A stretch of DNA of 64,000 bases from an uncultured Gemmatimonadales bacterium. GTDB lineage: Bacteria > Gemmatimonadota > Gemmatimonadetes > Gemmatimonadales > GWC2-71-9. The notes below the pieces were generated by a model. The model did no database searches. It was not told the origin of the DNA and worked only from the letters and a program-made list of their open reading frames with translations. The stretch is from NCBI GenBank assembly GCA_963722825.1, contig CAVROI010000002.1, positions 634,463 through 698,462 on the forward strand, read 5' to 3'. Shown piece by piece: positions 36,397 through 57,031 of this stretch; the stretch's first letter is position 1; the number at the start of each line of letters is the position of its first letter. Both the position numbers and the translations under genes were made by a program.

Positions 36397-37100
36397 CTCA
36401 TCACCTTGAGCATCTCGCCGGCCGCTCCCGGCCCGGTCTCCTTGCCCTCCTCGTGCTTGACGAAGACGTATGCCTCCGCCCACGGTTGCTCGCCGATTCG
36501 CCGCGCCCACGACTCCAGCTCCGCCTCGGTGTACGCCCCCCGCCGCATCCGGATGTAGCCCCACGAGGCCGTCGGTACCAGCGGAGCGCCGGGCCCTTCC
36601 TCCGCGTCCTCGTCCACCGCCACGAGCGCCACATTGCGGGCCCGAAGCGCGTCGTACACATCGTCCGCGAACCAGGTGGCATGCCTGAACTCCATCGCCG
36701 CGGTCCATTCCCGCGGGAGTCTGCCGAGAAACTCCTGGAGTCGACCGAGGTCCTTCTTGAGGCTGGGGGGGAGCTGGAACAGGGTCGGACCCCGACGGTC
36801 GCCCAGGACATTCGCGATCCGGAGGAAATAGTCGAGCGAATCGTCCGCGGCGGTCAGGCGATTGATGTGGGTGATGCGCCGAGAGGCCTTGAGCACGAAC
36901 CGGAACTCGGCCGGCACTTGCTCCGCCCACTGCATCAGCATGCGCTCGCTCGGCACCCGATAGAACGAGTTGTTGACTTCTACGGCCGGGAAGCGTCCGG
37001 CGTAGTACTGCAGCATACCATCCGCGGAGAGCTCAGACGGATAAAAGCTCCCCTTCCATTCCTTGTACGACCATCCGCTGGTGCCCACGAAGGCGCGCAT
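36381..37100 (-). CDS. DUF72 (YecE-like) family protein, paralog 2, co-operonic with ku
   Basis: VGTSGWSYKEWKGSFYP, YYAGRFPAVEVNNSFYR and GPTLFQLPPS. The ATG at 37100 lies 3 nt after the ku stop (37104-37106). Confidence 0.85.
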   Translation of the reverse strand: MRAFVGTSGWSYKEWKGSFYPSELSADGMLQYYAGRFPAVEVNNSFYRVPSERMLMQWAEQVPAEFRFVLKASRRITHINRLTAADDSLDYFLRIANVLGDRRGPTLFQLPPSLKKDLGRLQEFLGRLPREWTAAMEFRHATWFADDVYDALRARNVALVAVDEDAEEGPGAPLVPTASWGYIRMRRGAYTEAELESWARRIGEQPWAEAYVFVKHEEGKETGPGAAGEMLKVMSYSTT

Positions 37101-37103
37101 CGT

Positions 37104-37958
37104 CTACGAGGCCTTGCGGGCCCTCTTCTTGGCTGGCTTGGTGGTTTCGGAGGAGGATGACTTGGCGGACTTCTTCTCGGCGCCGCCCTTCTTGCCGAGG
37201 CTCGCCTTGAGTGCTTCCATCAGGTCGAGGATCTTCGTCTCCGGCTGTTCGCTGACCTCCGCCGTGATTTCCTGACCGTCGACCTTCTGCTGGATGGCGT
37301 CGAGCACGCGCTCCCGGACCGTGTCGCGATAGTTCTCCGGATGGAACTCGTCGGTAGCCGTCTGCTCGATGAGCTGCCGCGCCAGTGCCAGCTCGCCCTC
37401 CTTGACGGGCACGTCGGGGATCGGGACGTCTGCCGCGCTGCGAAGCTCCGCCTGATAGTGGAGCTGCTCCATCACGAGCACGCCGTCCATGGGGCGCACC
37501 AGCACCAGATACTGCTTGCCACGTGCGGAATACTGTCCCACCGCCGCGCGGCCGGTCTCTTCCAGCGCCTTGCTCAGCAGCCGGTAGGCCCGCTCGCCAC
37601 CCTTGTCCGGGCCGAGGAAGTAGGCCTTCTCGAGATAGAGACGGTCTACCTCGGAGAGAGGGACGAATTCGTTGACGTCGATGGTGTTAGTGGCCTTCTC
37701 GTCGAGCGCCTTCAATTCCTCCGGCGAGAAGACGACATATTGCCCCTTGGCGAACTCGTAGCCTTTCGCCATCTCGTCCCTCTCCACCACTTCCCCGTCC
37801 TTGGGGCAGATGTACTGCTGCTTCAGGCGAGTTCCGTCCTTCTTGTGCACCAAATTGAAGCTGATACTGGCGGCGGACTCGCTGGTGGAAAACAGGTTGA
37901 CTGGGACCGAGACCAGTCCGAAGGAAATCGTGGCGGAGGCCATCGAGCGGGCAGGCAT
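37104..37958 (-). CDS. ku: NHEJ DNA-end-binding protein Ku
   Basis: ATISFGLVSVPVNLFS..., KGYEFAKGQYVVFSPEEL and a basic Lys-rich C-terminal tail. The start is ATG 37958 or 37943. Confidence 0.9.
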   Translation of the reverse strand: MPARSMASATISFGLVSVPVNLFSTSESAASISFNLVHKKDGTRLKQQYICPKDGEVVERDEMAKGYEFAKGQYVVFSPEELKALDEKATNTIDVNEFVPLSEVDRLYLEKAYFLGPDKGGERAYRLLSKALEETGRAAVGQYSARGKQYLVLVRPMDGVLVMEQLHYQAELRSAADVPIPDVPVKEGELALARQLIEQTATDEFHPENYRDTVRERVLDAIQQKVDGQEITAEVSEQPETKILDLMEALKASLGKKGGAEKKSAKSSSSETTKPAKKRARKAS

Positions 37959-38100: not shown

Positions 38101-40635
38101 ATGGCTACCAAGAAGCCCGATCCTCTCGCCGCATACCGAGCCAAGCGTGAGCTGGCTCGCACCCCCGAGCCGGCCGGCGCGGTCGCGAAGAAACCCGCCG
38201 CGCCGGCTGGCGGCCTCTTCGTCGTTCACAAGCACGCCGCGAGGCGCCTGCATTACGACCTCCGCCTCGAGATGGGCGGCGTCCTGCAATCCTGGGCCGT
38301 GCCCAAGGGACCGTCGTACGACACCGCGGACAAGCGGCTCGCCGTCCACGTTGAGGATCACCCGCTCGAGTACGGTGATTTCGAGGGACTCATTCCCGAG
38401 GGGAATTACGGCGCGGGGGCTGTGATCGTCTGGGATCGCGGCCAGTGGGTCCCCGTGGGCGATCACGCCGATGGACTGGAGAAGGGAAAGCTGCTCTTCG
38501 AGCTGCGGGGGCGAAAGCTCCACGGCGTATGGACGCTCGTGAAGATCAAGAAGAGCGACCGCGACTGGCTGCTGATCAAGGAGCGGGACGCATACGCCGG
38601 CGCCGATGTTCCCGAGCCGCCGGAGGAGTCGGTACTCTCCGGACTCACCGTCGAGGAGCTGAAGGCCGGCCAGAGCCCGGCCGACGCCGTGCGGAAGGAG
38701 TTGACCAGGCTCGGGGCGCCGCGGAAGCCCCCGCGCCCCGAGACAGTGAAGCTCATGCTGGCCGAGACGCGCGACGAGCCGTTCTCCGCGGAGGGGTGGC
38801 TCTTCGAGCTCAAGCTCGACGGGTATCGCCTGCTCGCGGTGCGCGAAGGCCACGATGCCCGGCTCATCTCGCGCAACGGGAACGACCTCTCGTCCCAGTT
38901 TCCCGAGGTGATTCGCTCCCTCGCCGCGTTGCCGTTCGACCGGCTGCTCCTCGACGGCGAGGTGCTCGCGCTCGACGCCGCCGGGCGGCCCAGCTTCCAG
39001 CGGCTTCAGCAGCGGGCCCGTCTGAGCAGGGCGCTCGATATCCGCCGAGCGACGGTGGAGAACCCCGTTACGTTTTTCTCGTTCGATCTTCTGGCGTTCG
39101 AGGACTTCGATCTGCGCCCGCTGCCGCTCAAGCAACGGAAACCGATTCTCGAACGGCTGCTTCCGCCCGCGGGCGCCATCCGGTATCTCGAGCACTTCAA
39201 GCGCGACGGCATGGCGCTCTACGAGCAGGTGCGGCGCCTCGGCCTCGAGGGCATCGTCGCCAAACGGGCCGACGCGCCCTACCGCGCGGGTCGAGGGCCG
39301 GCCTGGCTCAAGATCCGCACCCGCCGCACGGACGATTTCGTCATCGTCGGGTACACCAGGCCCAAGGGGTCTCGCGGCGGATTCGGCGCGCTCTATCTGG
39401 CACAATACGTGGGCAAGGAGCTCGTCTTTTCCGGCAGCGCCGGTACCGGATTCAGCGACAAGCAGCTCGCCGACCTGCGCTCGCGCCTCGAAAGCATGCG
39501 GCGGGACGACCCGCCGTGTATCGGTCCGATTCCGAAGGAGAAGGGCGCCATCTGGGTCGAGCCACGACTCGTGTGCGAAGTGGAGTTCACCGAGCGAACC
39601 GACGATGGGTTGCTCCGCCAGCCGGTCTTCCTGCGTGAGCGGGACGACAAGGAGCCCGAGGAGTGCATCCGTCAGGAAGACGAGTCGCCCCGTGACACCG
39701 ACGCGGTCGATCCTGCCGGCGAGTCACTGGAACCACCGGAGCCGGAGCCGATCGTTCAGCGCTTCTCGAACCTCGACAAGGTCTTCTGGCCAGAGGAGGG
39801 ATACACCAAGGGCGACCTGATCGAGTACCATCGTTCGATCGCCCGGTGGATCCTGCCGTACCTGAAGGACCGGCCGGTGGTGCTTACCCGGTACCCCGAC
39901 GGCATCGAAGGGAAGTCGTTCTTCCAGAAGGACGCTCCGCCCTTCATTCCCGACTGGGTCCGGACCGAACGGAAATGGAGCGAACAGGCGCAGCGTGAGA
40001 TCGATTACTTCATATGCGACGACGAAGCCACCCTACTCTACATCATCAATCTCGGCACGGTCCCGCTGCACATGTGGGCGAGCCGCGTCGCGAGCATCGA
40101 CCGGCCGGATTGGTGCGTCCTCGATCTTGATCCCAAGGAGGCCTCATTTTCCGACGTCGTGCGGGTGGCAGAGGCCACGTACGCGCTGTGCCGGAGCCTC
40201 GGCCTCCCCAGCTTCATCAAGACCAGCGGCTCCTCGGGTCTCCACGTGCTCGTGCCGCTCGGGCGCCAGTGCGCGTACGACGAGGCCCGCGCCCTGGGTG
40301 AGCTGCTCGCCAGAGTAGTCGTCGCGGAGTTGCCGGACATCTCGACCATCACCCGGCAGGTCTCCCGCCGTGGCGGAAAGGTCTACGTCGACTACGTTCA
40401 GAACGGAGCCGGCCGCCTTCTCGCGTCACCCTTCTGCGTCCGGCCGCTGCCCGGCGCGCCGGTTTCCACGCCGCTCAAGTGGAGCGAAGTCAACGACTCG
40501 CTCGATGTCACCAGGTTCACCATCCGGACGGTCCCTCAGCGCATGCGGAAGTTGAAGGCCGATCCGCTGGTCGAGGTCCTCCGGCTCGCTCCGGATCTCG
40601 ACGAGGCCCTCGATCTGATCAGGGGGCGACTCTGA
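38101..40635 (+). CDS. ligD: multidomain DNA ligase D (PE - ligase - polymerase/primase order)
   Basis: PE domain (HKHAARRLHYDLRLE...VEDHPLEY), ligase KxDG (FELKLDGYRLLA) and a primase-polymerase domain (SGSSGLHVLVPL). The start is the ATG at 38101; the track ORF start (37801) reads through the heptad repeat and the ku 5' end. Confidence 0.92.
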   Translation: MATKKPDPLAAYRAKRELARTPEPAGAVAKKPAAPAGGLFVVHKHAARRLHYDLRLEMGGVLQSWAVPKGPSYDTADKRLAVHVEDHPLEYGDFEGLIPEGNYGAGAVIVWDRGQWVPVGDHADGLEKGKLLFELRGRKLHGVWTLVKIKKSDRDWLLIKERDAYAGADVPEPPEESVLSGLTVEELKAGQSPADAVRKELTRLGAPRKPPRPETVKLMLAETRDEPFSAEGWLFELKLDGYRLLAVREGHDARLISRNGNDLSSQFPEVIRSLAALPFDRLLLDGEVLALDAAGRPSFQRLQQRARLSRALDIRRATVENPVTFFSFDLLAFEDFDLRPLPLKQRKPILERLLPPAGAIRYLEHFKRDGMALYEQVRRLGLEGIVAKRADAPYRAGRGPAWLKIRTRRTDDFVIVGYTRPKGSRGGFGALYLAQYVGKELVFSGSAGTGFSDKQLADLRSRLESMRRDDPPCIGPIPKEKGAIWVEPRLVCEVEFTERTDDGLLRQPVFLRERDDKEPEECIRQEDESPRDTDAVDPAGESLEPPEPEPIVQRFSNLDKVFWPEEGYTKGDLIEYHRSIARWILPYLKDRPVVLTRYPDGIEGKSFFQKDAPPFIPDWVRTERKWSEQAQREIDYFICDDEATLLYIINLGTVPLHMWASRVASIDRPDWCVLDLDPKEASFSDVVRVAEATYALCRSLGLPSFIKTSGSSGLHVLVPLGRQCAYDEARALGELLARVVVAELPDISTITRQVSRRGGKVYVDYVQNGAGRLLASPFCVRPLPGAPVSTPLKWSEVNDSLDVTRFTIRTVPQRMRKLKADPLVEVLRLAPDLDEALDLIRGRL

Positions 40636-40657
40636 TGTATTGGTGCAAACGAAAGAA

Positions 40658-43600
40658 TTACCGGCCTGTAACCTTCGGGTCCTGGTCGAACCGGGTCCTC
40701 ACGTATTCTCGCGCGCTCTCAGCCGGAAGCTTCACAGTGCCCGGACCACTCCTCACGAAGAAGTCGCCGTCCGGCACAGATTCCATGCCCTTCCACTTGA
40801 GGAAAACCGGCTCCGGGCTCCGCTGACAGCTGACGACGCATACGGTCTTCCCCTGGACGATCTGCGTCTTGGGATCGATGCACGTTCCGGCCCGATCACC
40901 GAGTCCATTGCGCACCACCTGGGCCAAGTGGCGCATGAACTTGTCGTCGCTCTCCAGCCGGTCCTGCTCGATGCCGACGATCGAACCGTCGTCGCCCACC
41001 CCGATCAGCAGGTCGCCGCCCTCGGTGTTGAGGAACGCGGCTACGGTCTTGAGCGCTGCGTGTGTCACCAGCTTATCGTCCTGGCGATCCTCCTTGAGAC
41101 TCCATCGTAGGGTGGACTTGAACTCGAGCGTCTTCGACTCGCCCCGCTTGATCAACTCCTCCGCGTTGCGGTGGGCGCGGAAGTATTGGTCGAACAGAAA
41201 GGTCTTCACCGCCTCACCGAAGGCCCGGTCATCGGTGATGCGTTTGTACAGCTCGAAGTTCGAGTCCACGATCTCCTGGATCACGTGCTCCACCTTCTGG
41301 TCGAAGGTGAGCCGGACGTTCTCCCGGGTATTGACACGTGCCGCGGCATCCAGGCCCGCATCGTCGTCGAGTTTCTCCATTATCTGGCCCAGCGTGACCC
41401 GGTGCTCGGGCCCGAGGTTGACTCCGAAGCGCTCGTTGAGTTCGGCGATGATCCGGGACAGCGACTCGAGCTCTTCCGGACCGGTCTGATAGCCGCTCCC
41501 GGCGCTGACCGGGTTGAGCGTACCGGGCCGGCGCTCGAGCGGGATCTTCCCGCTGCTCGTCTGCTGGAGACGATACGACTCCATGTCGATGTTCTGTTGT
41601 ACCTCGCGCGGCAGCTCGACGCGGTCTCTGGGAGGAGCCGCCGAAGATAGCGGGCGAACACGTAGAGCTTTTCCAGGTCAATGTCGGAAAAGGTCAGCAC
41701 CTGCGCCAAGAACGTATAGAGCCGGATGTACTCCATGAGTTGGCTGCGGAACTCCTGCCGCTCGTCCCGCGCCAGGCCCTGAAACCGGTCGACCAGCGGC
41801 CCGAGCACGGCGTAGAGCCGGTCCTGGGTGGCCTTGGCGTCGAAGTACACCTTCGCGAAGGCATCTACGTCGGCTTCGGTGTAGACCGGGAACGCGGCCA
41901 GACGGGTCTGAATCTCGTACAACAGGTTGGGGTCGGTGGCCTCGGACAGCAACGTGGTCTCGTAGTACGGCTCGAAGGCAGCCCGGATCTCGTCGGCGCC
42001 GTTGGCGAAGTCCAGCACGGTGGTGCCGGTCTTCCCGGGTGCGTCCGGTTGAGCCGCGAGAGCGTCTGCACGGCGTTGACCCCCCGAGCTTCTTGTCCAC
42101 GTACATGGTGTGCAGCAGCGGCTGATCGAACCCGGTCTGGAACTTGTTTGCCACCACCAGAAACCGGTGTTCCGGCTGGTCGAAGGTCCTGCGCGCGTCT
42201 GCGTCTCTGGGCAGCGCCGTTCATTCCCGCCTCGGTGTAGGACTTGCCCGCGGTCCTGCACCGTGCCCGAGAACGCCACCAGCGCCTTGAAGGGGATATC
42301 CGCGCTCGGCAAGATACGTGGTCCAGGGCACGCCGGTAGCGCACAGCGTGCAGGCGCGAGCGGGTCACAATCATCGCTTTCGCCTTGCCGCCTATCTCGC
42401 GCTTGGATCTGCGCCGCGAAGTGCTCGACCATGAGCTTCACCTTCTCCCCGATCGCGTGCGGGTGCAGCTCCACGAAAGACTTGAGCAGGTATTCCGCCT
42501 TCTTCCGGTCGTAGTGCGGGTCGTTCTCGATCTTCTTGAGTAGCCGCCAGTAGGCGGTGTACGTGGTGTAGCTTGCGAGGACGTCCAGGATGAATCCCTC
42601 CTCGATCGCCTGCCGCATGCTGTAGAGATGGAACGGGATCAAACCTCCCGTCAGGGCGTTTCGTGCCGAACAGCTCCAGCGTCTTCTGCTTCGGCGTCGC
42701 GGTGAACGCGAAGGTGGACAGGTTGGGCAAGCGCCCGCGCTGCTCCATCTTCGGCCACGATGCGTGTCTCTCCAGCTCCTCCTCCGGACTCTCGGCCTCG
42801 CCTCCTCGCTCTCCGCCTCTTCTAGGTCTTCGGAAGCGAGCACGGCCTTGAGGCTCTTGGTGCTCTCGCCAGACTGGCGACGAATGGGCCTCGTCCACGA
42901 TGAGCGCGAAGCGCTTCCCCGGCAGCTCCCCGATCTCCTCGGCGATCACGGGGAACTTCTGGAGGGTGGTGACGATGATGGTTTTGCCCGACTCCAGCGC
43001 CTCCTTGAGCTGGCGGCTCGTCGTGTCGATGTTCTCCACCACGCCGAGGGTCTGCTCGAACTGCCGCATCGTGATCTGGAGCTGGCGGTCGAGCACCCGG
43101 CGGTCGGTCACAATGATGATCGAGTCGAATACCCGCTCGTCGGCGGCATTGTGGAGCGTGGAGAGCTGGTGGGCCAGCCAGGCGATAGTGAAGCTCTTCC
43201 GCTTCCCGCCGAGTGCTGAATCAGGTATCGGTGCCCGGTCCCGTTAGTCCGGGCGTCGGCCACCAGGCGGCGGACCGCATCGAGCTGCTGGTAGCGTGGG
43301 AAGACGAGGAACGCTTGCGGTCTTCGGCCCTTGTCGTCCTCTCGTCTATCTCGTGGATGAACTGGCGAACGAGATCGAGCACGCTGTCCCGTGCCCACGT
43401 TTCCTCCCACAGATACGCCGTGGCGAAAGCCCGCCTGCGTGGGATGATACGGGCGGGTTCCGGCACCGCCGAACTTGCCCTGGTTGAACGGAAGGAATCG
43501 GGTCTTGAGTCCCTCGAGCCGGGTGGTGACGTACACGAGGTCCGGGTCCACGGCGAAGTGCGCCAGGCAGCGGCCTTTGGCGAGGAGCGGCTCTCGCGGA

Positions 43601-44198
43601 TCGCGATCGGTCTTGTACTGCCGGATCGCGTCCTCGACCGTCCTGACCATTGAGGGGGTTCTTGAGCTCGGCGGTGAAGATTGGGATGCCGTTCAGGAAT
43701 AGGACCAGGTCGAGGCAGCTTCTCATTCTTGGTGCTGTACCGCACCTGCCTGACCACCGAGAACAGGTTCGCGGCATAGAGCCGGCGGGTCTCTTCATTG
43801 AGTCCGCTTGCGGGACGGAAGTAGGCCAGCCGGATCTTCACCCCGGAGTCCTTGAGCCCATTCCGCAGCACCTCGAGCGCGCCGCGCCGCTCGATCTCGG
43901 ACGCCATACGCTCGAGGAATCGGTCTTTGCACCCGCCGCCGTGGTGCTGGGCCAGCCTCTGCCACTCCTTTGGTTGTGTGGCCAGGACAAAGTCCACCAC
44001 GTCGCGCGGCAGGAGACAGAGCGTGCGGTCGTAGTCCTCCGGGCGCCGCTTGCCGTAACCGCCGGGGGGAGTCTCGCCGTAGGGCGGTGGTGTCTCGCGA
44101 ATGACCGCTGTCTCGCGAGCGCAGGCATCGGGGCCGTGCCGCAGCAGGCCGCACTCGATCGCGTCCTCGAAGGAGCGTTCGGAGATCTCGGGACTCAT
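40658..44198 (-). pseudogene. hsdR: type I restriction endonuclease subunit HsdR with a C-terminal AlbA_2/Schlafen-like domain; multiply frameshifted
   Basis: HsdR-like peptides are scattered over all three minus-strand frames in at least 9 track ORFs. Examples: FEDAIECGLL; LDLVLFLNGIPIFTAELKNPLNGQ; TVEDAIRQYKTDRD; FATAYLWEETW; YLIQHSAGSG (frame lost inside the Walker A); VDEAHSS (frame lost just after); NLSTFAFTATPK; ANKFQTGFDQPLLHTMYVDKKL; VNAVQTLSRLNRTHPG. I traced about 17-18 frame switches by hand. The C-terminal ORF (40658-41584) ends with GESKTLEFKSTLRW... (AlbA_2-like). Confidence 0.85.
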
Positions 44199-45239
44199 GC
44201 CGGATCACCCGGATCCGCAATCGGCGATCTCCCCCGGCCCCTTACGTCCCTACGTTGCCGGTCGATGGCACCTTTGAACGAGTTGTGGTCGGTGATCGAG
44301 CGCGAGCGACATTCTATCATGGCGACTCGCACGTTCTCCCCTCCGTGCTCGTCACCTTCAACCCAACCTTCGTGGGCCTTGTATGCATCGGCCTGTTTGG
44401 CCAACAAGACTCGGAAAGCGCTCGAGCCGCGGGGGCCCGGGATCCAAGCCGCTTACACGCAACCACAGTGTAGAATTGGGCCAGTCCCTCGATGATCTCG
44501 AGGTCGGTCCCCGCGAAGGCTTCCGTATCCCATTTTTCGTTGTCGATATCGCGGCCAAGGTGGGTATAGGCGTGTGCCAGCTCATGGGCCAACACGACGA
44601 TGGTCAGTGCTTCAACCTGCAAGCTGAGCGCCGCCATGATGCCGATCACCATCCGATAGAGCCGGATCTCCGGGACTCGAAAATAGTAAGCTCCCAGGAC
44701 GTCCTCTCTTATGCCGGCGAGGCGCCCGACTGCCTTCGTTTCGTCGAGTTCCTTCAGGAGGCCATATGCCATCCGGTACACGCTGTCGATCTCGCTCAAA
44801 TCGGCAAGATGCCCGGACGTTGTCCATGGTCCAGGAGGTGTGGGCAAGCGTTCCTTGAAGAAGGCTGTACCGTGAAGGATGGCTTCGATAGCAGGTCGGT
44901 GGAGCAGAAGCCATTCGAGACCGGAGAGCTGCTGGAGCAGGTCGCCAAACGCTCGGGGCATGCCACCGACTACATGGACCGGCACTGCTTGCGTCTCATT
45001 GCCGACGGTCAGGCGCAGCGCGGTCTCGGTGCGGATGAGGTCCCTAAGCGCCCCGTTCCACTGTCGGTAGGTTCTCTCCACGGTTGCCCGTACCCCTGGC
45101 GATTCCTGCTCCAGAAGCGCTGCCCGCGCCGCTCCAGATCAGGTGACCGTCCCGAGCGGGCACTGTGCGGCCCGTCCCCTGAGGGCTGGGCGTAGTGCCG
45201 CGTCGCATCTCCCCACGGCACATCAGAGATGGGGGTCAT
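44195..45239 (-). pseudogene. HExxH zinc-metallopeptidase-like protein (ImmA/IrrE-like?), apparently frameshifted twice
   Basis: Central ORF 44317-45081 contains VVLAHELAHAYTHLG. The ATG at 45239 overlaps the hsdS stop (ATGA) but is in another frame. The 3' continuation (...LLAKQADAYKAHEGWVEG..., ORF 44195-44407) is in the third frame, and its TGA overlaps the hsdR ATG (ATGA at 44195-44198). Confidence 0.55.
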
Positions 45240-46606
45240 GCCGCCGGCTCTTGTGTGGTGGCGCATTCTCGTACGTCGATTTTGCCAGTCACGGCGGCGG
45301 AGATGAGGGTCTTCCGCAGCTCTCTTAGGGATTCAATGGCAACACGGACCTTGGCCACAAGGGCATGGTGTTTCATCCCCTCTCGGTCGAGAGCATTCAC
45401 GATGACTTGCTGCTCCTTGACCGACGGAAACGCCACCTTCCTACTCGCAGTGGTCGTCAAATTCATTCTTGCTCTCGTCGCTCCGGACGCAAGCGATCCC
45501 GCAGCCGCCGAAGCAGTAGCAGACAGTTGGAATGCGAGGAAGCGTGGTAGGACCTTTCTCCGCTCGAGCCGGAACCGGAAGCAATCCGCCTTCACCATCG
45601 CTGGTTCGATCCCCCCGGGAGCAACACAGGCTCGACCGACCGGGTTCCGCTCGTCGCCAAGCCCAGCGATGAGAAGATCTCCGGCTTGGACTCTGTGGTC
45701 GCCGAGTTGACGAGCGTACGCCTCGTCGAGGTAGACTTGGTCTTCGTCCAGGAATTCGGTCCAGCCGATGTTCTGGAGACGTATGACCCGAACGCCAGAT
45801 GCGGAATAGTGCTCTGACTTCAGCCCGCTCCCGAAAGGCCCGTCGCACCTCGACAGTGTCACGCGGGCCAGTGAGAGGTTTTCCCAGTGTTCCGGAATCT
45901 CCCCTAGCCACTCGACGCCCGACTCCTTCATCGTGACATCTGTGTCGAGGCCCTTGGTTACAGTCCGGGTGATGAGCGCCGAGCGTTTTTCGTGCAGGAG
46001 CTCGATCAGCCGCTCCTTCTTCGCGATCAACGCATCGACTCGTGCCGTCTCAGTGTTCAGGAAGGCAGCGATAGAGCACTGCTCGTGGTCGGGAGGCAGC
46101 GCCAATTCGTATGTCGCCATTTCGCTGTCAGTGATGGCGGGGAAACTCACGCCCTTCGAGTTCGCCACCACCCGCTCCACGAAGTACGGTGCTCGCAGCG
46201 CATACGCCGCATAGTCGGTCTTGAACTCTTCGCCTGGACGCACGACCGCGAAACCGGTAGAGACGACTGTATGGGGTTCCGGCTCTCTAATCTGGGCAAT
46301 CGCGCGGAGGTACGTGCGGACGGTAGACACGATCACGTCGCCGTCTCGAACAAGCCGTCGGGCACGCGATGGCGCCGAACCAAAAGTGAGCGGCTCCCGT
46401 TCGATGACGCGACCAAGGCCATCGACTCCCCCGATGTCCACGTAAGACATCTCAAAGGTTGGATCCGTGTCTTCAGGCAGGGTTTCCACGTTGAGCGTTA
46501 CCAAGTCCTTCAGTCGCTTCACGCTCCAATGTGCTGGAATCTCCCCGAGCCACTCGACACCGGAGTCCTTGTAGGCTGGATACGGCTTGTATCGTCGTGC
46601 GCTCAT
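45236..46606 (-). CDS. hsdS: type I restriction-modification specificity subunit HsdS (two target-recognition domains)
   Basis: Duplicated pattern SGVEWLGEIPAHW / SGVEWLGEIPEHW, each followed by a variable TRD and conserved coiled-coil spacers (ARVDALIAKKERLIELLHEKRSALI; ...LRELRKTLISAAVTGKIDV). The ATG at 46606 overlaps the abiEii stop (ATGA). Confidence 0.9.
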   Translation of the reverse strand: MSARRYKPYPAYKDSGVEWLGEIPAHWSVKRLKDLVTLNVETLPEDTDPTFEMSYVDIGGVDGLGRVIEREPLTFGSAPSRARRLVRDGDVIVSTVRTYLRAIAQIREPEPHTVVSTGFAVVRPGEEFKTDYAAYALRAPYFVERVVANSKGVSFPAITDSEMATYELALPPDHEQCSIAAFLNTETARVDALIAKKERLIELLHEKRSALITRTVTKGLDTDVTMKESGVEWLGEIPEHWENLSLARVTLSRCDGPFGSGLKSEHYSASGVRVIRLQNIGWTEFLDEDQVYLDEAYARQLGDHRVQAGDLLIAGLGDERNPVGRACVAPGGIEPAMVKADCFRFRLERRKVLPRFLAFQLSATASAAAGSLASGATRARMNLTTTASRKVAFPSVKEQQVIVNALDREGMKHHALVAKVRVAIESLRELRKTLISAAVTGKIDVRECATTQEPAA

Positions 46607-47490
46607 CGCCACGGTCCTCCGGGTTCCCAACCGTTTTCGAAGGGCGCCACCGCCATGATGCTCTCCCGCACAGGGCCGAGAAACCGGATGATCTGCTCGC
46701 CAATGACCTCGAACCTGACAGGGGGTGAAACGAGCACGGCACCTGCGGTGAGATAAGCCCGCCATCGCGCCTCGATCTCTGGGATCAGGTAGAAGGCGGG
46801 GGTCAGGGGGCGTGGCCTCTCCGCGGCCCATGGGGTCCGCCGCCGGTCGAAACAGGCGCCGACGGCACGTTGGAGCGCCGCGCCTCCAAACGAAAACGCG
46901 GTCGAAAGCGCCCAGACGTCATGAAAGTCCTTCATCCGGCTGTTCCGAGTGTCCAGCGAGATTATCGCCTCGAATTTCTCCGCCACGCTCGCCTCTCGCG
47001 GGTAGGCGCAAAGACGCGGCGCGGGCAGACCGCTCAGCATGAGCGGGTATTCGATCTCTTCGGGTCCGGTCACCAGCGCGTCGCCGAATCCGAAGTCCAT
47101 CTGAACTCGGATGCGCGCAGCGCCGAGGAAGGCCAGAAAGCGAGCGCGCTTACCCGGATACTGCTCCGGCCCCCGAGTGTCCTCGATAGTCAGGCCGGTG
47201 AGGTCGAACCGCAGGCCGTCCTCAGGACACGGAACCGCGCAAATCTCCCCCACCAGCGCGCGGATCGCTGCATCGTCCGTCGAGCCGAAGGTCAGGACAT
47301 CCACGTCCCGCGTGGCACGGTAGGGATCGGGCATCCATGCGGTCAGCAGGCTGGCCCCTTTGAGAACGCACCGTTCGCGCGCCGCCGAGGCGCCGAGCCG
47401 GTAGAGCAGCCGCTCGTCGGCATAGCGGACCAGTGTCCGCTCGAATTCTTCCCCCCGTTTCTTGGCCTGGGTGAGAAGGCGCGCCTGCAC
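46603..47490 (-). CDS. abiEii: nucleotidyltransferase AbiEii/AbiGii-family toxin (type IV TA)
   Basis: ...FERTLVRYADERLLYRLG...CVLKGASLLTAWMPDPYRATRDVDVL...SRMKDFHDVWAL. The start is uncertain: GTG at 47490, or a non-canonical codon near 47520. The 525-aa track ORF is an out-of-frame read-through of abiEi. Confidence 0.8.
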   Translation of the reverse strand: MQARLLTQAKKRGEEFERTLVRYADERLLYRLGASAARERCVLKGASLLTAWMPDPYRATRDVDVLTFGSTDDAAIRALVGEICAVPCPEDGLRFDLTGLTIEDTRGPEQYPGKRARFLAFLGAARIRVQMDFGFGDALVTGPEEIEYPLMLSGLPAPRLCAYPREASVAEKFEAIISLDTRNSRMKDFHDVWALSTAFSFGGAALQRAVGACFDRRRTPWAAERPRPLTPAFYLIPEIEARWRAYLTAGAVLVSPPVRFEVIGEQIIRFLGPVRESIMAVAPFENGWEPGGPWR

Positions 47491-47510
47491 TGACGCTGCG
47501 ACGTCGGGGC

Positions 47511-48142
47511 TCAGATCAACCTCGCGTCGAGGGCAGCGCGCAGGCGACGGGAGGGGAGGACCTCCTCCACGCGCGCGAGCTCGGCCACGGTGACCTTCCG
47601 CTGCCGCAGCGCGTCCGTCAGCGCCTCCATCGCGGTTTCTGCTCCCACGAGACGCTCGAATCGGAAACAGTCGGCGACGGTTCGCGCCGGGCTCGTGATC
47701 CTGCCAGGCACTCCTTCGAATTCGACGTCCCTGACACCGAATATCCTGGCCGGCCCGCTGAAGCGCACGATGCGCAGCCTCAGCTGGGGCACGCGCGGGA
47801 CACGCGCCTTGTGCGGAATGGCGAGCCAGGTTTCCGCGGGCGCCTGGGTGCCGATGCCGTGAACGCGGAGAGCGGAAAGCAGGCAGACGACGCTGGTGGG
47901 AACGCGGGCGCACGCCAGTGCCAGGGAGTAATCTTCTGTCGGTTCGGCATCCACCAATCGGTAGAGTCCTCGGCCGGCGTGCTCGACCATCCCGGAGCGG
48001 ACAAGGGCTGGGAGCTGGTCCCGCGTCAGCCCAGCCGCTTCGAGCTGGCTCGGCCGAAAAAAGCTCCCAGCTTGGCCGCCCGAAGCTGTTTGAGAGGCGT
48101 CGGTACCTTCTGGCGCGATTTGTCGGCATTGGTCGCTGGCAT
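47511..48142 (-). CDS. abiEi: AbiEi-family antitoxin; 5' wHTH region separated from the body by a 1-nt frame offset at an A6/T6 run
   Basis: ORF 47511-47990 (MVEHAGRGLYRLVD...). The same frame stays open upstream, reading ...RPSQLEAAGLTRDQLPALVRSG. ORF 48026-48214 contains MPATNADKSRQKVPTPLKQLRAAKLGAF from the ATG at 48142. The two frames meet at the homopolymer at 48057-48062. Confidence 0.7.
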
Positions 48143-48181
48143 GCCTGCAACTTGGGTCGCCGGAACCTTGGTGTCAACACG

Positions 48182-48216
48182 AAATGTCGGCATATATGAT
48201 ATGAATGCCGACATTT
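48182..48216. promoter_or_regulatory. 12-bp perfect inverted repeat with an AT-rich 11-nt spacer between the hsdM stop and the abiEi start (operator and/or terminator candidate)
   Basis: AAATGTCGGCAT (48182-48193) and ATGCCGACATTT (48205-48216) flank ATATGATATGA. A minus-strand TTGACA lies at 48177-48172, just downstream in the direction of transcription. Confidence 0.6.
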
Positions 48217-48220
48217 TGTG

Positions 48221-50383
48221 TCAGGGAGAATTCGACCCCGTTACCTCCGCCAGCATCCGGACGATATCGCCCTCGATCGTGCGGATGTCCGCCTCGATCT
48301 CCTCAACCGGCCGCGGCAGCTTGTAGCGGTAGAAGTGCCGGTTGAAGTTGATCTCGTAGCCTACGACGCCTACCAGACCGTCCTTGTCGTCCCGGCGTCC
48401 AGTGTCGATCCACGCGTCGGGAACGTGGGGTCTCACCTCCTGGTCGAAGAACGCCCGCACGCTGGCGGGCACGCCTTCAGTGTCGGCGGGATCGTCTCCC
48501 GGAGGTAGCGGAACGCTCTCGGAGTCGCGCAGCTCGGGATCGGACTCGGGATTGCCATCCCGGTCGCGGCAGATGGCGGCCGCCTCGTCCCGTTCCGAGA
48601 GCGCCGAAAGAATGGCCTTCCGGGCTTGCGCCGGAATCTTGATACCCGTCAGCGTCGCGGCGCCGTCGAGGACGTGCTCGAACTCGTTGCGGTCCTTGAC
48701 GAGCGTGGCTGGGAGACCGTTCAGCAGTTGCTTGAGGGCCTCCTGGAGCTCCCGGCCTTGAGCCTCCTCTCTGGCGCCCGCGGCGCCCTTCTTCTTCGAC
48801 TGTACCAGCCCCTGGAAGCCCTTTTCCTCGTCGAGCCGCGCGATCCGTTCCGGGCTTGCCTGGAAGTTGAGACGTAGCGGCCGCTCCACCGTGATCTTGC
48901 GGAAGCCGAAGTTGGTGGTCGGGAAGATGCGACTGACCGTGATTGCTTCCTCCTCCCCGTCCTTACTGGCCCGGCGGGTGTCGCCGTCCTTGAAGCCGGC
49001 GAGCAGCTCGAGAATATCCCGTGCCTTTTCGGGCGGGATCTCGCGCCGCTTGGCGCCCATATTCTTGCGCATCAACATCCAGAAAGCTTGCGAGGATGCG
49101 TCGATGAGTTGGACCTGGCCTTTTCGCGCCGCCGCCTTGCGGTTGGTGATCACCCAGACGTAGGTGGCAATCCCGGTGTTGTAGAAGAGTTCCTCGGGGA
49201 GGGCGACCAGCGCCTCGAGCAGGTCGTGCTCCATGACGAACCGCCGTATCTCGCTCTCGCCGCTGCCCGCATCTCCTGTGAAGAGTGGCGAGCCGTTCAT
49301 GATGATGGCGATGCGTGCGCCGCCCTCCTTCGGTCCTTTTGCGTGGGCCAGCATATGCAGCAGGAAGAGCAGCTGGCCGTCGCTGATCCGGGGCAGTCCG
49401 GGCCCGAAGCGACCAGCCGCGCCGCGCTCGTTCTCGCTCCGGACGGCATCCTCGTCCCGCTTCCAGTCCTTGCCGTAGGGAGGATTGGCGATGAGGTAGT
49501 CGAACCTCTGGCCCCCATGACGGTCGTTCGAGAGCGTGCTTCCGTACGCGATACTATCGGCGTCGCGCCCGGTCGGGTCTTTCATGAAGAGGTCCGACTT
49601 GGACACGGCCCAGGTCTCCGGATTCACCTCCTGCCCGAACAGGTGGATCTCCGCTTCGGGGTTGATCGGAGGGCTCAATTGATCTCCGTTCTTCCGCCGC
49701 CCGACCGTGATGTGCTCCTTAGTGATCATCAGCATGCCCCCGGAGCCGCAGCACGGGTCATAGACGGTGCACACCACCCCGCGGCGTCGAACCCTGGACT
49801 GGTCGCCGGCGAGCATCAGGTCCACCATCAGGTGGACGACGTCTCGCGGAGTAAAGTGCTCACCGGGGTTCTCGTTCAGCGCCTCATTGAACTTCCGGAT
49901 CAGCTCCTCGAAGATGGTTCCCATCGTGGGGTTGTCGATCCTGTCCGGGTGCACATCTACCTGCTTGAACCGCTCGAGAACCTTGAACAGGAGGCCGGCT
50001 TCGTCAAGCTTGCTGATCGTGTTGTCGAAGTCGAACTTCTCGAGCACTTCGCGCATGTTCGGGCTGAAGCCGGCGATGTAGTTTCGAAGATTGGCGGCCA
50101 CATGCGGTGCGTCGCTCAGAAGCTTCTCGAAGTCGTAGCGCGAGGTGTTGTAGAAGGCGAAACCCGAGGCCCGGCGCAGCTGCGCGTCGAGATCCTGGAG
50201 ACCCTTGCCACGCAGTTCCGCCTGTCGCCGGAGCACTCGCTCCTTGGTATCTGCGAGAACGCAGTCGAGCCGGCGGAGCACCGTGAGGGGAAGGATCACG
50301 TCCTGGTACTTGCCGCGTTTGAACGTGTCGCGGATGAGATCTGCCACTCCCCAGAGCCAGCTTACGATTTCGCTATGATTCAC
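48221..50383 (-). CDS. hsdM: type I restriction-modification DNA methyltransferase subunit HsdM (N6-adenine, long form)
   Basis: HsdM N-terminal pattern (LWGVADLIRDTFKRGKYQDVILPLTVLRRLD), SAM motif (VYDPCCGSGGML) and catalytic LIANPPYG. The likely start is the GTG at 50383, 7 nt after GGAGG; the track ORF starts at TTG 50428. Confidence 0.92.
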   Translation of the reverse strand: MNHSEIVSWLWGVADLIRDTFKRGKYQDVILPLTVLRRLDCVLADTKERVLRRQAELRGKGLQDLDAQLRRASGFAFYNTSRYDFEKLLSDAPHVAANLRNYIAGFSPNMREVLEKFDFDNTISKLDEAGLLFKVLERFKQVDVHPDRIDNPTMGTIFEELIRKFNEALNENPGEHFTPRDVVHLMVDLMLAGDQSRVRRRGVVCTVYDPCCGSGGMLMITKEHITVGRRKNGDQLSPPINPEAEIHLFGQEVNPETWAVSKSDLFMKDPTGRDADSIAYGSTLSNDRHGGQRFDYLIANPPYGKDWKRDEDAVRSENERGAAGRFGPGLPRISDGQLLFLLHMLAHAKGPKEGGARIAIIMNGSPLFTGDAGSGESEIRRFVMEHDLLEALVALPEELFYNTGIATYVWVITNRKAAARKGQVQLIDASSQAFWMLMRKNMGAKRREIPPEKARDILELLAGFKDGDTRRASKDGEEEAITVSRIFPTTNFGFRKITVERPLRLNFQASPERIARLDEEKGFQGLVQSKKKGAAGAREEAQGRELQEALKQLLNGLPATLVKDRNEFEHVLDGAATLTGIKIPAQARKAILSALSERDEAAAICRDRDGNPESDPELRDSESVPLPPGDDPADTEGVPASVRAFFDQEVRPHVPDAWIDTGRRDDKDGLVGVVGYEINFNRHFYRYKLPRPVEEIEADIRTIEGDIVRMLAEVTGSNSP

Positions 50384-50502
50384 TGCTATGCCTCCGGTGC
50401 TTGCCGGGAGAAACGAAATGTTCGTCAAAGTAACATCATGGATCGTTACAGATTAGCCGTGTGGTGTGACATCGGTCCGGTGAGACGATCGGACAAGGGT
50501 CA

Positions 50503-51144
50503 TTGATGCCGGACCTCCTGGTGCGCCCGCCCGATGCCTGGCTTCTCTTCGTTCTGGCGCACGGGGCCGGAGCCGGGATGAACCATCGTTTCCTCGAGGC
50601 CGCGGCGCTGTCCCTCGCGGAGCGGGGGATCGCGACCTTCCGCTATCAGTTCCCATACATGGAAAACGGCGGTGGCCGGCCCGATCCGCCCAGTGTGCTG
50701 GAAAGCTCCGTCCGCGGCGCCGTGGAAAGGGCCATCGGCGCCGCGCCGGGCCTGCCCACGGTTGCTGGCGGCAAGTCGCTGGGCGGCCGGATGACGTCGT
50801 CCGCGGCGGCGGCGGCACCCCTGCCCGGCGTTCGAGGCCTCGTTTTTCTCGGCTTCCCCCTTCACCCACCCGGACAACCCGGCACCCGCCGCGCCGACCA
50901 TCTCGATCGCGTAGACTTGCCCATGCTCTTTCTGCAGGGCACCCGCGATTCCTTCGCGCCTCTCGATTCCATCACTCAGGTTTGCCGACATCTCGGCGAC
51001 CGCGCGACTCTCCACGTGGTGGAGGGGGGAGATCATTCGTTCGGAGTCCTCAAGCGATCCGGCCGCACGCCGGGCGAGGTGATGGATGAGCTGGCGGATG
51101 CCGTTGCCGGCTGGGCTCGACCGCTGGCGGGCGTCGCAGCGTGA
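50503..51144 (+). CDS. alpha/beta hydrolase-fold protein (KANL3/Tex30-like small hydrolase)
   Basis: [16 protein letters not shown]..., GGKSLGGR nucleophile elbow and [10 protein letters not shown]...GGDHSF. The likely ATG is at 50506. The stop overlaps the next gene's GTG (GTGA at 51141-51144). Confidence 0.75.
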
Positions 51145-54044
51145 GCGCTGACCCGACGGCACAGCAGCGGAAGGCCATCGAAGCCCCACTCGGTCCTGTT
51201 CTCGTCCTGGCCGGCCCCGGTGCGGGGAAGACGTACTGTCTCATCGGACGCATCCAGCACCTCATCGAGCGCCTCGAGCTGGCCCCCAACCGCATCTGCG
51301 CGGTCACGTTCACCAACAAGGCAGCGGAGGAGATCGGGTCACGACTCAAGACCTCGGTAGGCGTGGCCGACGGCCAGCTCACCGGCGGTACCATCCACGC
51401 ACTCTGCCTCTCGATCCTGCGGGAGTTCTCCCGAGAGGCCGGCCTCCGCCCCGGGTTCGGCGTCGCGGACGATGACTACCAGCGGCGCCTGCTCCGCCAG
51501 CTTCGGGTCCGCACCGAGCGTCAGGGGCAGGTGCTCGGACTCTTCGGCCAGCACCGTCTCCAGGGAAGCCCGCTCACCGGTGGCGATCACGAGTTGTTCG
51601 AGCGGTACATCGAAGCGCTGCGCGGCCGCAATCTGGTGGACTTCGACGATCTGATCGGTCTCACCGGAAGGCTGCTCCGCACCAGTGAGACGGTGGCGCA
51701 GACGCTTCGGTGTCGGTGGGACTACGTTCTGGTCGACGAGTTCCAGGATCTCAACTTCGCCCAGTATGGAATCCTCAGGGCGCTGGTCGCCAACCACCGC
51801 AACCTCTTCGGGGTGGGAGACGACGAGCAATCCATCTTCTCCTGGACCGGAGCGGATCCCGCGATCCTGGGCCGGTTCTGCGAGGACTTCGGAATCGAGA
51901 AGCCGATTGTCATCGATCAGAATCGGCGATGCTCGGTGCAGATCTTCGATGCGGCGAGGCGGTTGATCGCCAACAATCCGGCACGCTTCGCCAAATGCAT
52001 CGAGGCACAGCGAGAATCCCCGTTCGAAGTCGAGATCAGGATCTTCCCCGACGAAGATGCCGAAGCCGAGTGGCTGATCCGTGACGTGATGGAGGACCGC
52101 CGGCGCGATGGCCCGGGCTGGGGAGACTACGCGGTGCTCTATCGCTACCACCGCGACGGGCAGCTGCTCGAGGGAAAGTTGCTTCGCGAGGGCGTGCCCT
52201 GCCGGCTCGCCCGCGGTCAGGCGCTCATGGACGACGAAGTCGTGGCCTACGTCATCACGTCGCTCCGGGTGGCTCGGTCGCCGGGCAATCCCCTGCTGAT
52301 GGATGCACTCGCCGAAATGCTGTTGCCTGAGCCGCTCCTTCAGGATGTGCGCGCCGACTGCACTCCGGCCGACGATCTCGTCACCAGCCTGCGCCGCTTC
52401 GCCCGGCAGCGACACAAGGGCGACGCCGATGCCAAGAAGGCCTGGCGCTTCGTTTTTCACGCCGAGAATCTGCGCGCCATGGAGCGATCCCACGGCTCGG
52501 TGGAGAGCATGGTGGCCGAGCTGCTCTCGCAGCGCGTCGGCCCGGCGCGGAACCCGCTCGAGGAGCGCCACCAGGATCTGACCGACCCCGCCGCCTACCC
52601 AGGCGCTCGCGTCCTCGCGGAGCGGCTCCGGTCGGCCATGGCGACGGGCTCGCCGGTATGGCTCGAGCCCGACCGGGGTGTCGACATCGCGCTCCTCGGC
52701 ATGCTCCGCGGCGGCGGAGTGGCCACCGCCGTCCGGCTCGGCCCCGGTGACGAGCCGGCGCTTGCGGACCTCGTACTTCGACCCGCCGGCATCGGCCAGG
52801 GCGGGTGGCCGCTGCTGGTGTTCAAGGCCCTCCAGCTGCTCCACCCACCCGTGCAGCGGGGAGAATTCCGTGATTACGTCACGTTCGATCTCGAGACCAC
52901 CGACCTGGACGTCGGGACCTGCGAAATAATCGAGATCGCTGCCGTGCGGGTGCGTGAAGGCAGGGTAGTGGAGCGGTTCAGGTCGCTGGTCGGCTGCACC
53001 CGTCCCATCAGCGCCGGCGCCCGGCAGGCCCACGGCTACTCCGAGGCCGACCTGCGCGGGGCGCCAGCGTTCGGAGAAGTCTGGCGGCAATTCCGCGAGT
53101 TCGTGGGGACGGACGTGCTTGTCGCCCACAACGGCCAGTACTTCGACGTGCCCGTGCTTCGCCGCGCCGCCGAGCCGTTCGGCGGGACGGACGATCTGGT
53201 CTTCTACGACACCCTCCCCCTCAGTCGCTCTCTGAGCGAGGAGAGTGCCAAGCTCGCCGACCTGGCCCGCCGCTTCGGGGTAGACGTGGGCAGGTCGCAC
53301 CACGCGCTCGACGACGCGCTGATGCTGGCGGCGCTGCTACCGCACCTCAAGACGCTGGAAGCGATGCGGGCCCGGAAGGCCGCCCAGGTCCATCTCCTCG
53401 ATTTCCTGGGACTGGCGCTGGCGCTGGACTCGGCGCCCGATCCCGTTCCGGAAGTGCGCCTGCTCGCGGATCTGTGCCGGCCTTATTCGCTGGGGCGTTA
53501 CAGCGACTGTCTCGATTTCTATGCTGCCGAGCGCGGGCCGGGGTTGCCGGGTGCGCCCAGCCTCGAGGACGTCATCGAGCGACTGGGAGGGCGTGCCCTC
53601 ATGGAACGGATTCGGGTCGAGCGATCGCCGGCCGATCGGTTCCCCGCGGCGGTAGCCCGGCTGGGCCTCTTGCTGGCGGCGAGCCGGGGCGAGACCATAG
53701 TCGACCGCCTCGATGACATGCTCGGTCGGGCCACGCTGTCGAGCAGCGCGGAGGTCGACACCGATCCCCATCGGCTCAATCTTCTCACCCTGCATTCGAC
53801 CAAGGGACTCGAGTTCTCCCGTGTCTATATCGTCGGCGTGGAGGATCAGCAGATCCCGGGCTGGAGGGCGATTCAGGACGGTCGAGAGGACGAGATTCAG
53901 GAGGCGCGCCGGCTGTTGTACGTGGGCATGACCCGGGCGAAAGACCGGCTCGTGCTGACTCGCGCCGAGCGGCGAGGCGGGAGACCCTCGGGCGGAAGCC
54001 TTTTTCTGGTGGAGGCCGGCCTGATGTCGCTCATTCGGACGTGA
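51141..54044 (+). CDS. UvrD/Rep-family superfamily-1 helicase with an embedded DnaQ-like DEDDh 3'-5' exonuclease domain
   Basis: Helicase motifs: AGPGAGKT (Walker A), [18 protein letters not shown], and late LHSTKGLEF and [11 protein letters not shown]. Between them are ExoI FDLETTD, Exo[15 protein letters not shown] and Exo[14 protein letters not shown]. Confidence 0.88.
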
Positions 54045-54285
54045 CAGTATTCTGCCCGGACCCTCGCAGCTCACGACGATCCGGGCATCCGCTGGCCTTC
54101 GGTCACCAAAGAGCCGATCGAGAGATCAACCGGGATCTCCCGATCCACCAGCAGGTTGGGGTCCTGCTCGATCACCGGTGAATCCGGTTCCGTCCTCTCC
54201 CGCCTTCGGGCACATCCGTTGCATCCCCGCATCAAGTCCCCCGACAGCAGTTCCTACACGCCGCATCATTCTGGAGTGCCTCATC

Positions 54286-56868: not shown

Positions 56869-57031
56869 TCGCGCCATCGCCGCTCTCCGGCTTCACGCAC
56901 TCGTCACGGGCCCCTAACTGGGGCCCGTGCCGCTTCTTGCACTCTCCTCCTCGCCCGGCTCTTGCTCCGCTTGGCGCCGACCGCAGCCCAGCCCCGACTC
57001 AGCCAATCTTCTCATGACGGACGAGGTCAGC

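Follow-up and report, generated by a model that had tools for sequence, protein, structure and literature searches.

The window analysed here is a 64,000-nucleotide stretch (66% G+C) from an uncultured Gemmatimonadales bacterium (assembly GCA_963722825.1, contig CAVROI010000002.1, positions 634,463 to 698,462 of the forward strand), an order to which the names of its nearest database homologs also point. It carries a chromosomal pair of genes encoding a small alpha/beta hydrolase and a UvrD-type helicase that also contains a DnaQ-like exonuclease domain. [quoted passage not shown] Our comparisons suggested that the hydrolase and the helicase–exonuclease are probably accessory end-processing factors of NHEJ, encoded in the distal part of an extended Gemmatimonadales operon. 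The relevant features are listed below; aa denotes amino acids and SF1A denotes helicase superfamily 1A.

36381..37100, minus strand: DUF72 gene (Pfam PF01904, E 3.6e-56)
37104..37958, minus strand: Ku gene, divergent from ligD (Pfam PF02735, E 1.2e-48)
38101..40635, plus strand: LigD gene, with phosphoesterase, ligase and primase-polymerase domains (Pfam LigD_N, DNA_ligase_A_M, DNA_ligase_A_C, LigD_Prim-Pol)
40638..50503: inserted island, its genes all on the minus strand (Pfam; TGATG at both ends; absent from the relatives examined)
50506..51144, plus strand: Abhydrolase_11 serine hydrolase gene, 212 aa (Pfam PF20408, E 1.2e-51)
51141..51144, plus strand: GTGA overlap, in which the hydrolase stop meets the helicase GTG start (sequence)
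51141..54044, plus strand: gene for an SF1A helicase of the UvrD/PcrA/Rep type with a nested DEDDh exonuclease, 967 aa (Pfam, NCBIfam, AF2, Foldseek)
52299..53681, plus strand: enlarged segment at the 2B position of the helicase, aa 387-847 (phmmer against PDB; hhalign)
52872..53381, plus strand: predicted DEDDh (DnaQ/RNase T-like) 3'-5' exonuclease domain, aa 578-747 (Pfam RNase_T; 2p1j match)

The original prediction, made from the sequence before any database search, described the two reading frames and the GTGA overlap correctly, and the same 4-base overlap was found in the gene calls of five relatives. Translational coupling and domain anatomy were both borne out by the sequence and Pfam. 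The helicase matched UvrD-helicase (E 6e-61) and, in two stretches, UvrD_C (E 6e-34), whereas aa 580-733 matched RNase_T (E 7.5e-28, 98.6 bits against a cut-off of 24). All the helicase and exonuclease motifs first quoted were present (aa 24-31, 199-203, 226-233, 582-588, 663-671, 720-725, 884-892 and 928-937), and the SF1A motifs Q, I, Ia, II, III, IV, V and VI were conserved. The distance between motifs III and V, initially estimated at about 400 aa, is actually about 650 aa.

In a phmmer search against PDB, aa 9-386 aligned to positions 17-413 of Deinococcus radiodurans UvrD (DrUvrD) and aa 848-945 to positions 530-630. The intervening aa 387-847 remained unaligned between the two halves of the UvrD 2A domain and therefore constitute a 461-aa segment at the 2B position, compared with roughly 120-170 aa ordinarily. 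An hhalign comparison with 67 sequences, drawn from 78 ordinary UvrD/Rep loci of a genome-collection scan, aligned the first helices beyond aa 386 with the beginning of 2B; up to aa 857, the rest of the insert was mostly unmatched, with scattered low-confidence columns. An AlphaFold2 (AF2) model built on 50 homologs (predicted local distance difference test score, pLDDT, 85.7; predicted template modelling score, pTM, 0.73) showed, in this part of the protein, a helical stretch (384-505) followed by a small alpha/beta unit (506-567), with the exonuclease fold (578-747) and then further helices (750-864) after it. The best Foldseek matches of the model were DrUvrD, PcrA, Rep and Mycobacterium tuberculosis UvrD1 (MtUvrD1), with E 1e-30 for the first three and target-normalised TM scores of 0.61-0.71, and the predicted fold has the four subdomains 1A, 1B, 2A and 2B. 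No solved chain recovered by Foldseek carried the whole helicase–exonuclease architecture. The exonuclease region was matched by the PolC exonuclease domain 2p1j (phmmer against PDB, E 8e-18). By alignment and model alike, the exonuclease is predicted to be nested inside an enlarged 2B domain and not to replace the centre of the protein. Thus, the proposal that an exonuclease had taken the place of the central helicase region was right about the exonuclease but not about a simple replacement, and phmmer, hhalign and AF2 agreed with the expectation that domain and structure prediction would place it at the 2B position.

Conservation was assessed in two alignments, A1 (50 Gemmatimonadales homologs, 59-100% identity) and A2 (53 sequences, down to 24% identity). 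The predicted DEDDh catalytic residues D583 and E585 (ExoI, D-x-E), D669 (ExoII), and H720 and D725 (ExoIII, H-x4-D) were invariant in A1, and in A2 their conservation was 90% or more, up to invariance. In the motor, K30 (Walker A), D199, E200, Q202, R263 and R932 (motif VI) were invariant in A1, and K30, D199, E200, R263 and R932 were so in A2 as well. The domain is predicted to act on DNA as a 3'-5' exonuclease. Homologs of the helicase were 59-81% identical and of near-constant length among the at least 119 homolog clusters listed. The scores for the NCBIfam equivalog models were far below their cut-offs (rep, 324 against 951; pcrA, 311 against 911; uvrD, 274 against 1144), which indicated a subfamily distinct from Rep, PcrA and UvrD. 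A PD-(D/E)XK (RecB-type) domain was not found in the helicase protein by Pfam, and the NCBIfam addA and recB scores were also far below cut-off. The C-terminal Tudor-like tail, which serves partner binding (RNA polymerase, Ku), was absent, as the UvrD alignment stops at aa 945 of 967 and no further domain follows.

The hydrolase is a smaller and more strongly conserved protein. Its true start is ATG 50506, one codon past the TTG at 50503 that had been taken as the start of a 213-aa product; relatives begin with MPDL at the same point, and hence the gene call held and the start did not. Abhydrolase_11 covered aa 15-205 (175.6 bits against a cut-off of 27). The putative triad S91, D148 and H177 lies in a nucleophile elbow GGKSLGGR and in GTRD and DHSF motifs, with an oxyanion motif HGAG at aa 19-22. 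All four motifs, and with them the triad, were invariant in 21 locus-derived sequences (37-100% identity) and in 38 database homologs (alignment A5). The AF2 model (pLDDT 88.4) showed a lid-less alpha/beta serine hydrolase fold, to which Foldseek found the lid-less esterases and proteins of unknown function 2o2g, 2fuk and 3trd to be closest; a sequence search of PDB returned weak, partial matches alone. Together, the motifs and the model predict a competent catalytic site. Gemmatimonadales homologs were 71-82% identical, a conservation exceeding that of the helicase. In databases, the two proteins are annotated as 'alpha/beta family hydrolase' and 'UvrD-helicase domain-containing protein', and nothing more.

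The neighbourhood of the pair was examined in clade A, the clade of the window, defined by helicases at least 60% identical to that of the window. The gene order of this clade is DUF72 and Ku on the minus strand and, divergently, LigD, hydrolase and helicase–exonuclease on the plus strand. The succession LigD–hydrolase–helicase was present in all eight clade-A loci with upstream sequence, i.e., the window, L001, L082, L084, L086, L179 and the metagenome contigs L093 and L094. L179, the closest relative found (helicase 81% identical), has the same five-gene module. In L001, a 3.7-Mb contig (helicase 69% and Ku 85% identical to those of the window), the stop codon of LigD and the start codon of the hydrolase overlap in TAATG, and the two genes share bases in L179 as well. 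L001 also shares the outer neighbours of the window, with TamB, Omp85 and PIG-L on one side and a coiled-coil protein, a G8/CEMIP protein and HrpB on the other. In three further contigs, L082, L084 and L086 (65%, 62% and 60% identity), the module was kept, whereas the outer neighbours differed and the gene downstream of the helicase varied. Comparison with relatives including L179 also set the LigD start at ATG 38101 (844 aa). The mechanically called open reading frame (TTG 37801, 944 aa) runs into the start of Ku; the corrected start removes this overlap and leaves a divergent control region of 142 bp between ku and ligD. With Ku encoded together with a LigD that has phosphoesterase, ligase and polymerase domains, the window contains a bacterial NHEJ gene cluster.

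In the window, the ligD–hydrolase junction is interrupted by the 9.87-kb island, placed exactly between the ligD stop and the hydrolase start, with TGATG at both ends (40633-40637, including the LigD stop, and 50504-50508, including the hydrolase start). Pfam identified Schlafen/AlbA_2, a fragmentary HsdR-like region, HsdS, AbiEii and HsdM, with the AbiEii gene sitting between hsdS and hsdM. The island was absent from L001, L082, L084, L086, L093, L094 and L179, where ligD abuts the hydrolase gene. A repeat search at the island ends turned up a single 8-mer, which was unrelated, and no inverted repeat of more than 7 bases, leaving TGATG as the sole shared sequence, and no integrase or tRNA was seen at the island. 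From this comparison, the island is an insertion into an operon junction, found in this genome alone among those examined. Its adjacency therefore carries no information on what the pair does. The direct flanking of a restriction–modification (R-M) island was thus correctly noted for this genome and does not extend to relatives, and the argument from that adjacency to a defence effector is not supported. Likewise, a survey of the relatives revealed no defence-island association, the contexts being Ku/LigD or housekeeping genes. As to what the original prediction had named as counting against a defence role, orthologs did occur in conserved settings that have no relation to defence, but the partner hydrolase was kept and the exonuclease residues were conserved.

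Two side observations concern the island and the cluster. Within the HsdR region (41380-45081, minus strand), only an SWI2_SNF2/ResIII fragment (42392-43111) is recognisable, surrounded by overlapping reading frames in differing frames that match nothing in Pfam and have a lower G+C at third positions; possibly, the restriction subunit is degraded, with the methylase and specificity genes intact. In every Gemmatimonadales locus, DUF72 is a neighbour of Ku, and it remains with the cluster when the gene order changes; it is a possible fifth component of the system.

Scanning metagenomes with a C-terminal alignment specific to the family extended the survey to 80 loci, which were characterised by tblastn with the Ku, LigD, hydrolase and DUF72 of the window, by clustering of open reading frames and by a neighbour-joining helicase tree. 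In clade C, which is more basal (42-50% identity), the five genes are kept together and their orders differ. The order is helicase–hydrolase–DUF72(-)–Ku(-)–LigD in L143 and helicase–DUF72(-)–Ku(-), divergent from LigD–hydrolase, in L157, with L156 likewise and 3 kb in between. L162 has hydrolase–helicase–DUF72, and L163 has DUF72, the helicase and a divergent Ku/LigD pair at intervals. In seven short clade-C contigs (L143, L147, L149, L150, L153, L164 and L167), the hydrolase gene lies 66-111 bp 3' of the helicase gene. DUF72 was retained with the set in L143, L156, L157, L159, L162 and L163.

Outside these clades, the architecture and catalytic residues were kept in Acidobacteriota, Calditrichota (including Caldithrix abyssi), KSB1, Planctomycetota and Poribacteria. 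A 49%-identical member stands by itself beside a TetR/ABC cluster, and the helicase–exonuclease of Blastocatellia stands alone. In Calditrichota bacterium LG25 (L089, 9538-14837), a protein about 30% identical is encoded in the order holC (chi)–helicase/exonuclease–recJ–DUF494–topA–xerC. Neither Ku nor LigD nor the hydrolase was found within the flanks of the Planctomycetota and Poribacteria loci. The genome-collection scan, performed with A2 and generic Walker A and DExQD patterns, returned the 78 ordinary UvrD/Rep loci, and the insert was present in L002 and L003 alone. Among 72,556 plasmids, no full-length homolog of the helicase insert was found. In clade B, the sister of clade A (50-59% identity), ten loci form one syntenic block with a ligase-only ATP-dependent ligase downstream of the helicase–exonuclease, which is weak evidence given that the contigs are related. 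The loci of this block include L097, L098, L099, L105, L111, L128, L129, L148 and L154; Ku is not present in it, and its genes encode a ligase of about 490 aa matching the LigD ligase domain alone, an Ogt/MGMT-like protein with a PCHRV motif and a protein that is NUDIX-like by eye.

The hydrolase has its own distribution in Proteobacteria. A tblastn search of plasmids returned 237 records, chiefly rhizobial megaplasmids. On Sinorhizobium meliloti pSymA, a homolog 40% identical over its full length and with identical motifs belongs to a co-directional cluster of ligD, ku, a tetratricopeptide-repeat (TPR) protein gene, the hydrolase gene and xth, encoding exodeoxyribonuclease III (L172, CP090105.1 1089920-1095862; TPR gene at L172 5887-6972). 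At least 80% of this 5.9-kb cluster was carried by 87 plasmid records, among them S. fredii, where the nucleotide identity was 80%. A genetic study of S. meliloti NHEJ contains no occurrence of the word 'hydrolase', and the match of the pSymA locus to its ligD2/ku2 pair was not confirmed. In Variovorax paradoxus (CP063167.1; L174 6102-7618), the last part of a TatD-family gene and the beginning of a 54%-identical Abhydrolase_11 homolog overlap, and on a Sphingomonas plasmid, xth is annotated beside ligD. The hydrolase was thus found beside three 3'-5' nucleases, namely the DEDDh fusion in the window, Xth in Sinorhizobium and TatD in Variovorax, a recurrence that, speculatively, points to a step coupled to 3'-end cleaning.

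Taken together, we consider it likely that the genes form an operon serving end joining, in which ku is divergent from ligD, hydrolase and helicase–exonuclease genes follow ligD and DUF72 lies beside ku. The active sites of both proteins appear intact and are conserved. The pair is linked to Ku/LigD in two separate clades despite changes in gene order, the start/stop overlaps are operon-like and the genes look co-transcribed, and no association with defence islands or plasmids was observed. Several points weigh against this interpretation. The case for an NHEJ role is drawn entirely from gene neighbourhood, and the neighbour-joining tree that defines the clades carries no support values. In clade B, any of Ku, LigD, hydrolase and DUF72 occurred nearby in only 3 of 43 informative loci, and none of the four was found within the flanks of the six distant members L002, L003, L088, L089, L090 and L170; the helicase–exonuclease is therefore not obligatorily tied to NHEJ. 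The helicase of the window is also without the Tudor tail, which is the Ku contact of the mycobacterial protein UvrD1. Moreover, the hydrolase homologs of Caballeronia, Paraburkholderia, Sphingobium and Rhizobium have unrelated neighbours, with metabolic contexts for the closest ones (Caballeronia and Rhizobium), and the hydrolase family is thus not exclusively repair-linked.

Clade B and the distant phyla leave room for the main rival, according to which the helicase–exonuclease is a general housekeeping paralog of UvrD/PcrA acting in fork, gap or flap processing, with a lineage-specific linkage to ligD and the hydrolase as a passenger. The wide phylogenetic spread of the architecture, its place among replication and repair genes in Calditrichota, its solitary occurrence in Blastocatellia and P0241 and the largely unlinked clade B are all consistent with such a role, which we regard as possible but the less probable account. 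The linkage to Ku, LigD, hydrolase and DUF72 outlasted several independent order changes in clades A and C, and unless co-expression was selected for, this is difficult to account for. The overlaps of ligD with the hydrolase gene (L001 and L179) and of the hydrolase gene with the helicase gene argue for a single transcript, and the hydrolase joined a ligD–ku cluster independently in Sinorhizobium. A variant of the NHEJ interpretation, in which the helicase–exonuclease serves the locus and the hydrolase is an unrelated small-molecule esterase that is merely co-transcribed, could be based on the resemblance of its fold to generic feruloyl esterases, dienelactone hydrolases and monoglyceride lipases in Foldseek and on the catabolic neighbours (pca, tannase and SDR genes) of its close proteobacterial homologs. 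It is improbable given that the hydrolase is conserved more strongly than the helicase in Gemmatimonadales, remains beside the helicase or LigD after rearrangement (L143, L156, L157 and L162) and recurs in the Sinorhizobium cluster with xth.

An anti-phage module, with a helicase–nuclease effector and a hydrolase tied to the adjacent R-M/AbiE island, is the least probable explanation, and we rate it as very unlikely. The pair does abut a type I R-M/AbiEii/Schlafen island in this genome, PADLOC models of GajB and a DRT-associated helicase scored highly, and a 2026 paper is reported to tie mycobacterial NHEJ to phage resistance (PMC12848934). However, the island is missing from relatives with readable upstream sequence, in which ligD directly precedes the hydrolase gene. 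The PADLOC matches cover the generic UvrD core alone and were rejected as defence evidence, and the hydrolase matched no PADLOC model. No adjacent GajA-like or other partner was found, the helicase insert has no full-length plasmid homolog, and conservation at 59-81% identity over the homolog clusters looks vertical. The evidence favours the alternative offered with the original prediction, namely a repair enzyme. In our assessment, the locus is an extended Ku/LigD system, not a new defence system, and a lead on the end-processing enzymes of bacterial NHEJ.

Motors of the UvrD type travel 3'-5' along single strands, and unwinding is regulated by their 2B domain, which contacts the duplex. Under the NHEJ interpretation, Ku would bind the broken end, and the SF1A motor, a 3'-5' translocase by family, would fray or unwind the end or clear bound proteins from it. 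The DEDDh domain, carried on 2B and hence presumably near the duplex junction, could then remove 3' nucleotides that are mismatched or damaged, along with 3' flaps, all of them beyond the reach of the LigD phosphoesterase, after which LigD would fill and seal the break. The hydrolase would act in the same pathway; that it does so by stripping an ester- or acyl-type blocking adduct from ends or by deacylating a repair partner is a guess in which we have low confidence. Coupling of Ku to a motor of this family has a precedent, as M. tuberculosis Ku stimulates unwinding by UvrD1 according to a preprint (bioRxiv 10.1101/2023.09.29.560180). A bolder proposal, and a doubtful one at this stage, is a four- to five-protein NHEJ system comprising Ku, LigD, a Ku-coupled helicase with a proofreading exonuclease on 2B, an Abhydrolase_11 enzyme that cleans ends or deacylates a partner and possibly DUF72, with the same hydrolase working with Xth and TatD in Proteobacteria.

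The locus resembles several known systems in part. Like the window protein, mycobacterial UvrD1 is an SF1A UvrD-family motor tied to Ku/LigD, and MtUvrD1 was among the top fold matches; UvrD1 differs in being without an exonuclease domain, in lying outside the ku/ligD operon and in binding Ku via its C-terminal Tudor domain. The eukaryotic WRN protein combines a RecQ helicase with a DEDD 3'-5' exonuclease and is stimulated by Ku70/80. It offers the closest functional analogy, with a 3'-5' helicase and a DnaQ-like 3'-5' exonuclease in one chain acting on Ku-bound ends. Its motor is a superfamily 2 (SF2) RecQ helicase and its exonuclease is N-terminal, in contrast to the SF1A motor and 2B-nested exonuclease here, and the two fusions share no common descent. 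If the NHEJ role holds, the helicase–exonuclease would be, by analogy, a bacterial and convergently built counterpart of WRN working with Ku.

AddAB, AdnAB and RecBCD likewise use UvrD-like SF1 motors with a nuclease for processing break ends, as reflected in fold matches and sub-threshold NCBIfam matches; they are hetero-oligomers of homologous recombination with a C-terminal PD-(D/E)XK nuclease, unlike the internal DEDDh domain and Ku/LigD context of the window. The DnaQ-exonuclease/DinG fusions (TIGR01407 and PRK08074) also join a DnaQ-like exonuclease to a repair helicase, and their models match the exonuclease domain, but their motor is of the SF2 (XPD-like) type, their exonuclease is N-terminal and the window protein scores far below the family cut-offs. 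GajB of the Gabija system shares the UvrD-like core (PADLOC GajB model, E 9e-90). In the window, its partner GajA is absent, the neighbours being the Abhydrolase_11 and coiled-coil genes; there is no defence-island conservation, GajB is without an exonuclease insert, and GajB chains in PDB matched helicase aa 10-72 alone. Genes for a helicase, a nuclease and a hydrolase-type enzyme also accompany an ATP-dependent ligase in a bacterial operon of undefined repair role, but every component comes from other protein families and Ku is absent. The S. meliloti pSymA ligD–ku cluster shares the Abhydrolase_11 gene and a gene for a 3'-5' exonuclease/AP endonuclease (xth) 3' of ku, but its nuclease is ExoIII and it has no helicase. 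In the literature searched, no UvrD-family helicase with a nested DnaQ-like exonuclease was described, nor was a repair role for Abhydrolase_11 or DUF72 or the presence of these genes as NHEJ neighbours.

Descriptions of bacterial end joining usually present a minimal system of Ku and LigD, and to our knowledge the nuclease responsible for trimming 3' ends and flaps in it has not been identified so far. An operon adding a helicase–exonuclease and a serine hydrolase to ku and ligD supplies concrete candidates for the end-processing step, suggests a bacterial counterpart of the WRN–Ku partnership and opens a first route to the function of Abhydrolase_11 and DUF72, two uncharacterised families that accompany the cluster. 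The Abhydrolase_11 family takes in the eukaryotic proteins TEX30 and KANSL3, and the four- or five-protein machine, if true, would provide the first biochemical role for this family. The parallel ligD–ku–TPR–hydrolase–xth cluster in the genetically tractable Sinorhizobium makes the hydrolase part of the proposal testable. The locus also urges caution, as adjacency to a defence island can reflect recent insertion and not functional association.

Scans for promoters and terminators in 50250-50650 and 53950-54250 gave nothing useful. In several relatives (L084 4729-5559, L086 4847-5671, L095 and L163), a MerR-type helix-turn-helix/TPR gene lies between DUF72 and Ku, and it is not present in the window; similarity between the TPR proteins of Sinorhizobium and Gemmatimonadales is confined to the repeats and was therefore not counted as homology. 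Downstream of the pair (54178-59431), the window encodes an 896-aa coiled-coil protein with weak BLOC1_2-type matches and an 834-aa G8/CEMIP beta-helix protein. Both genes were kept in the two closest relatives and not in others, and hence they are probably unrelated to the repair module.

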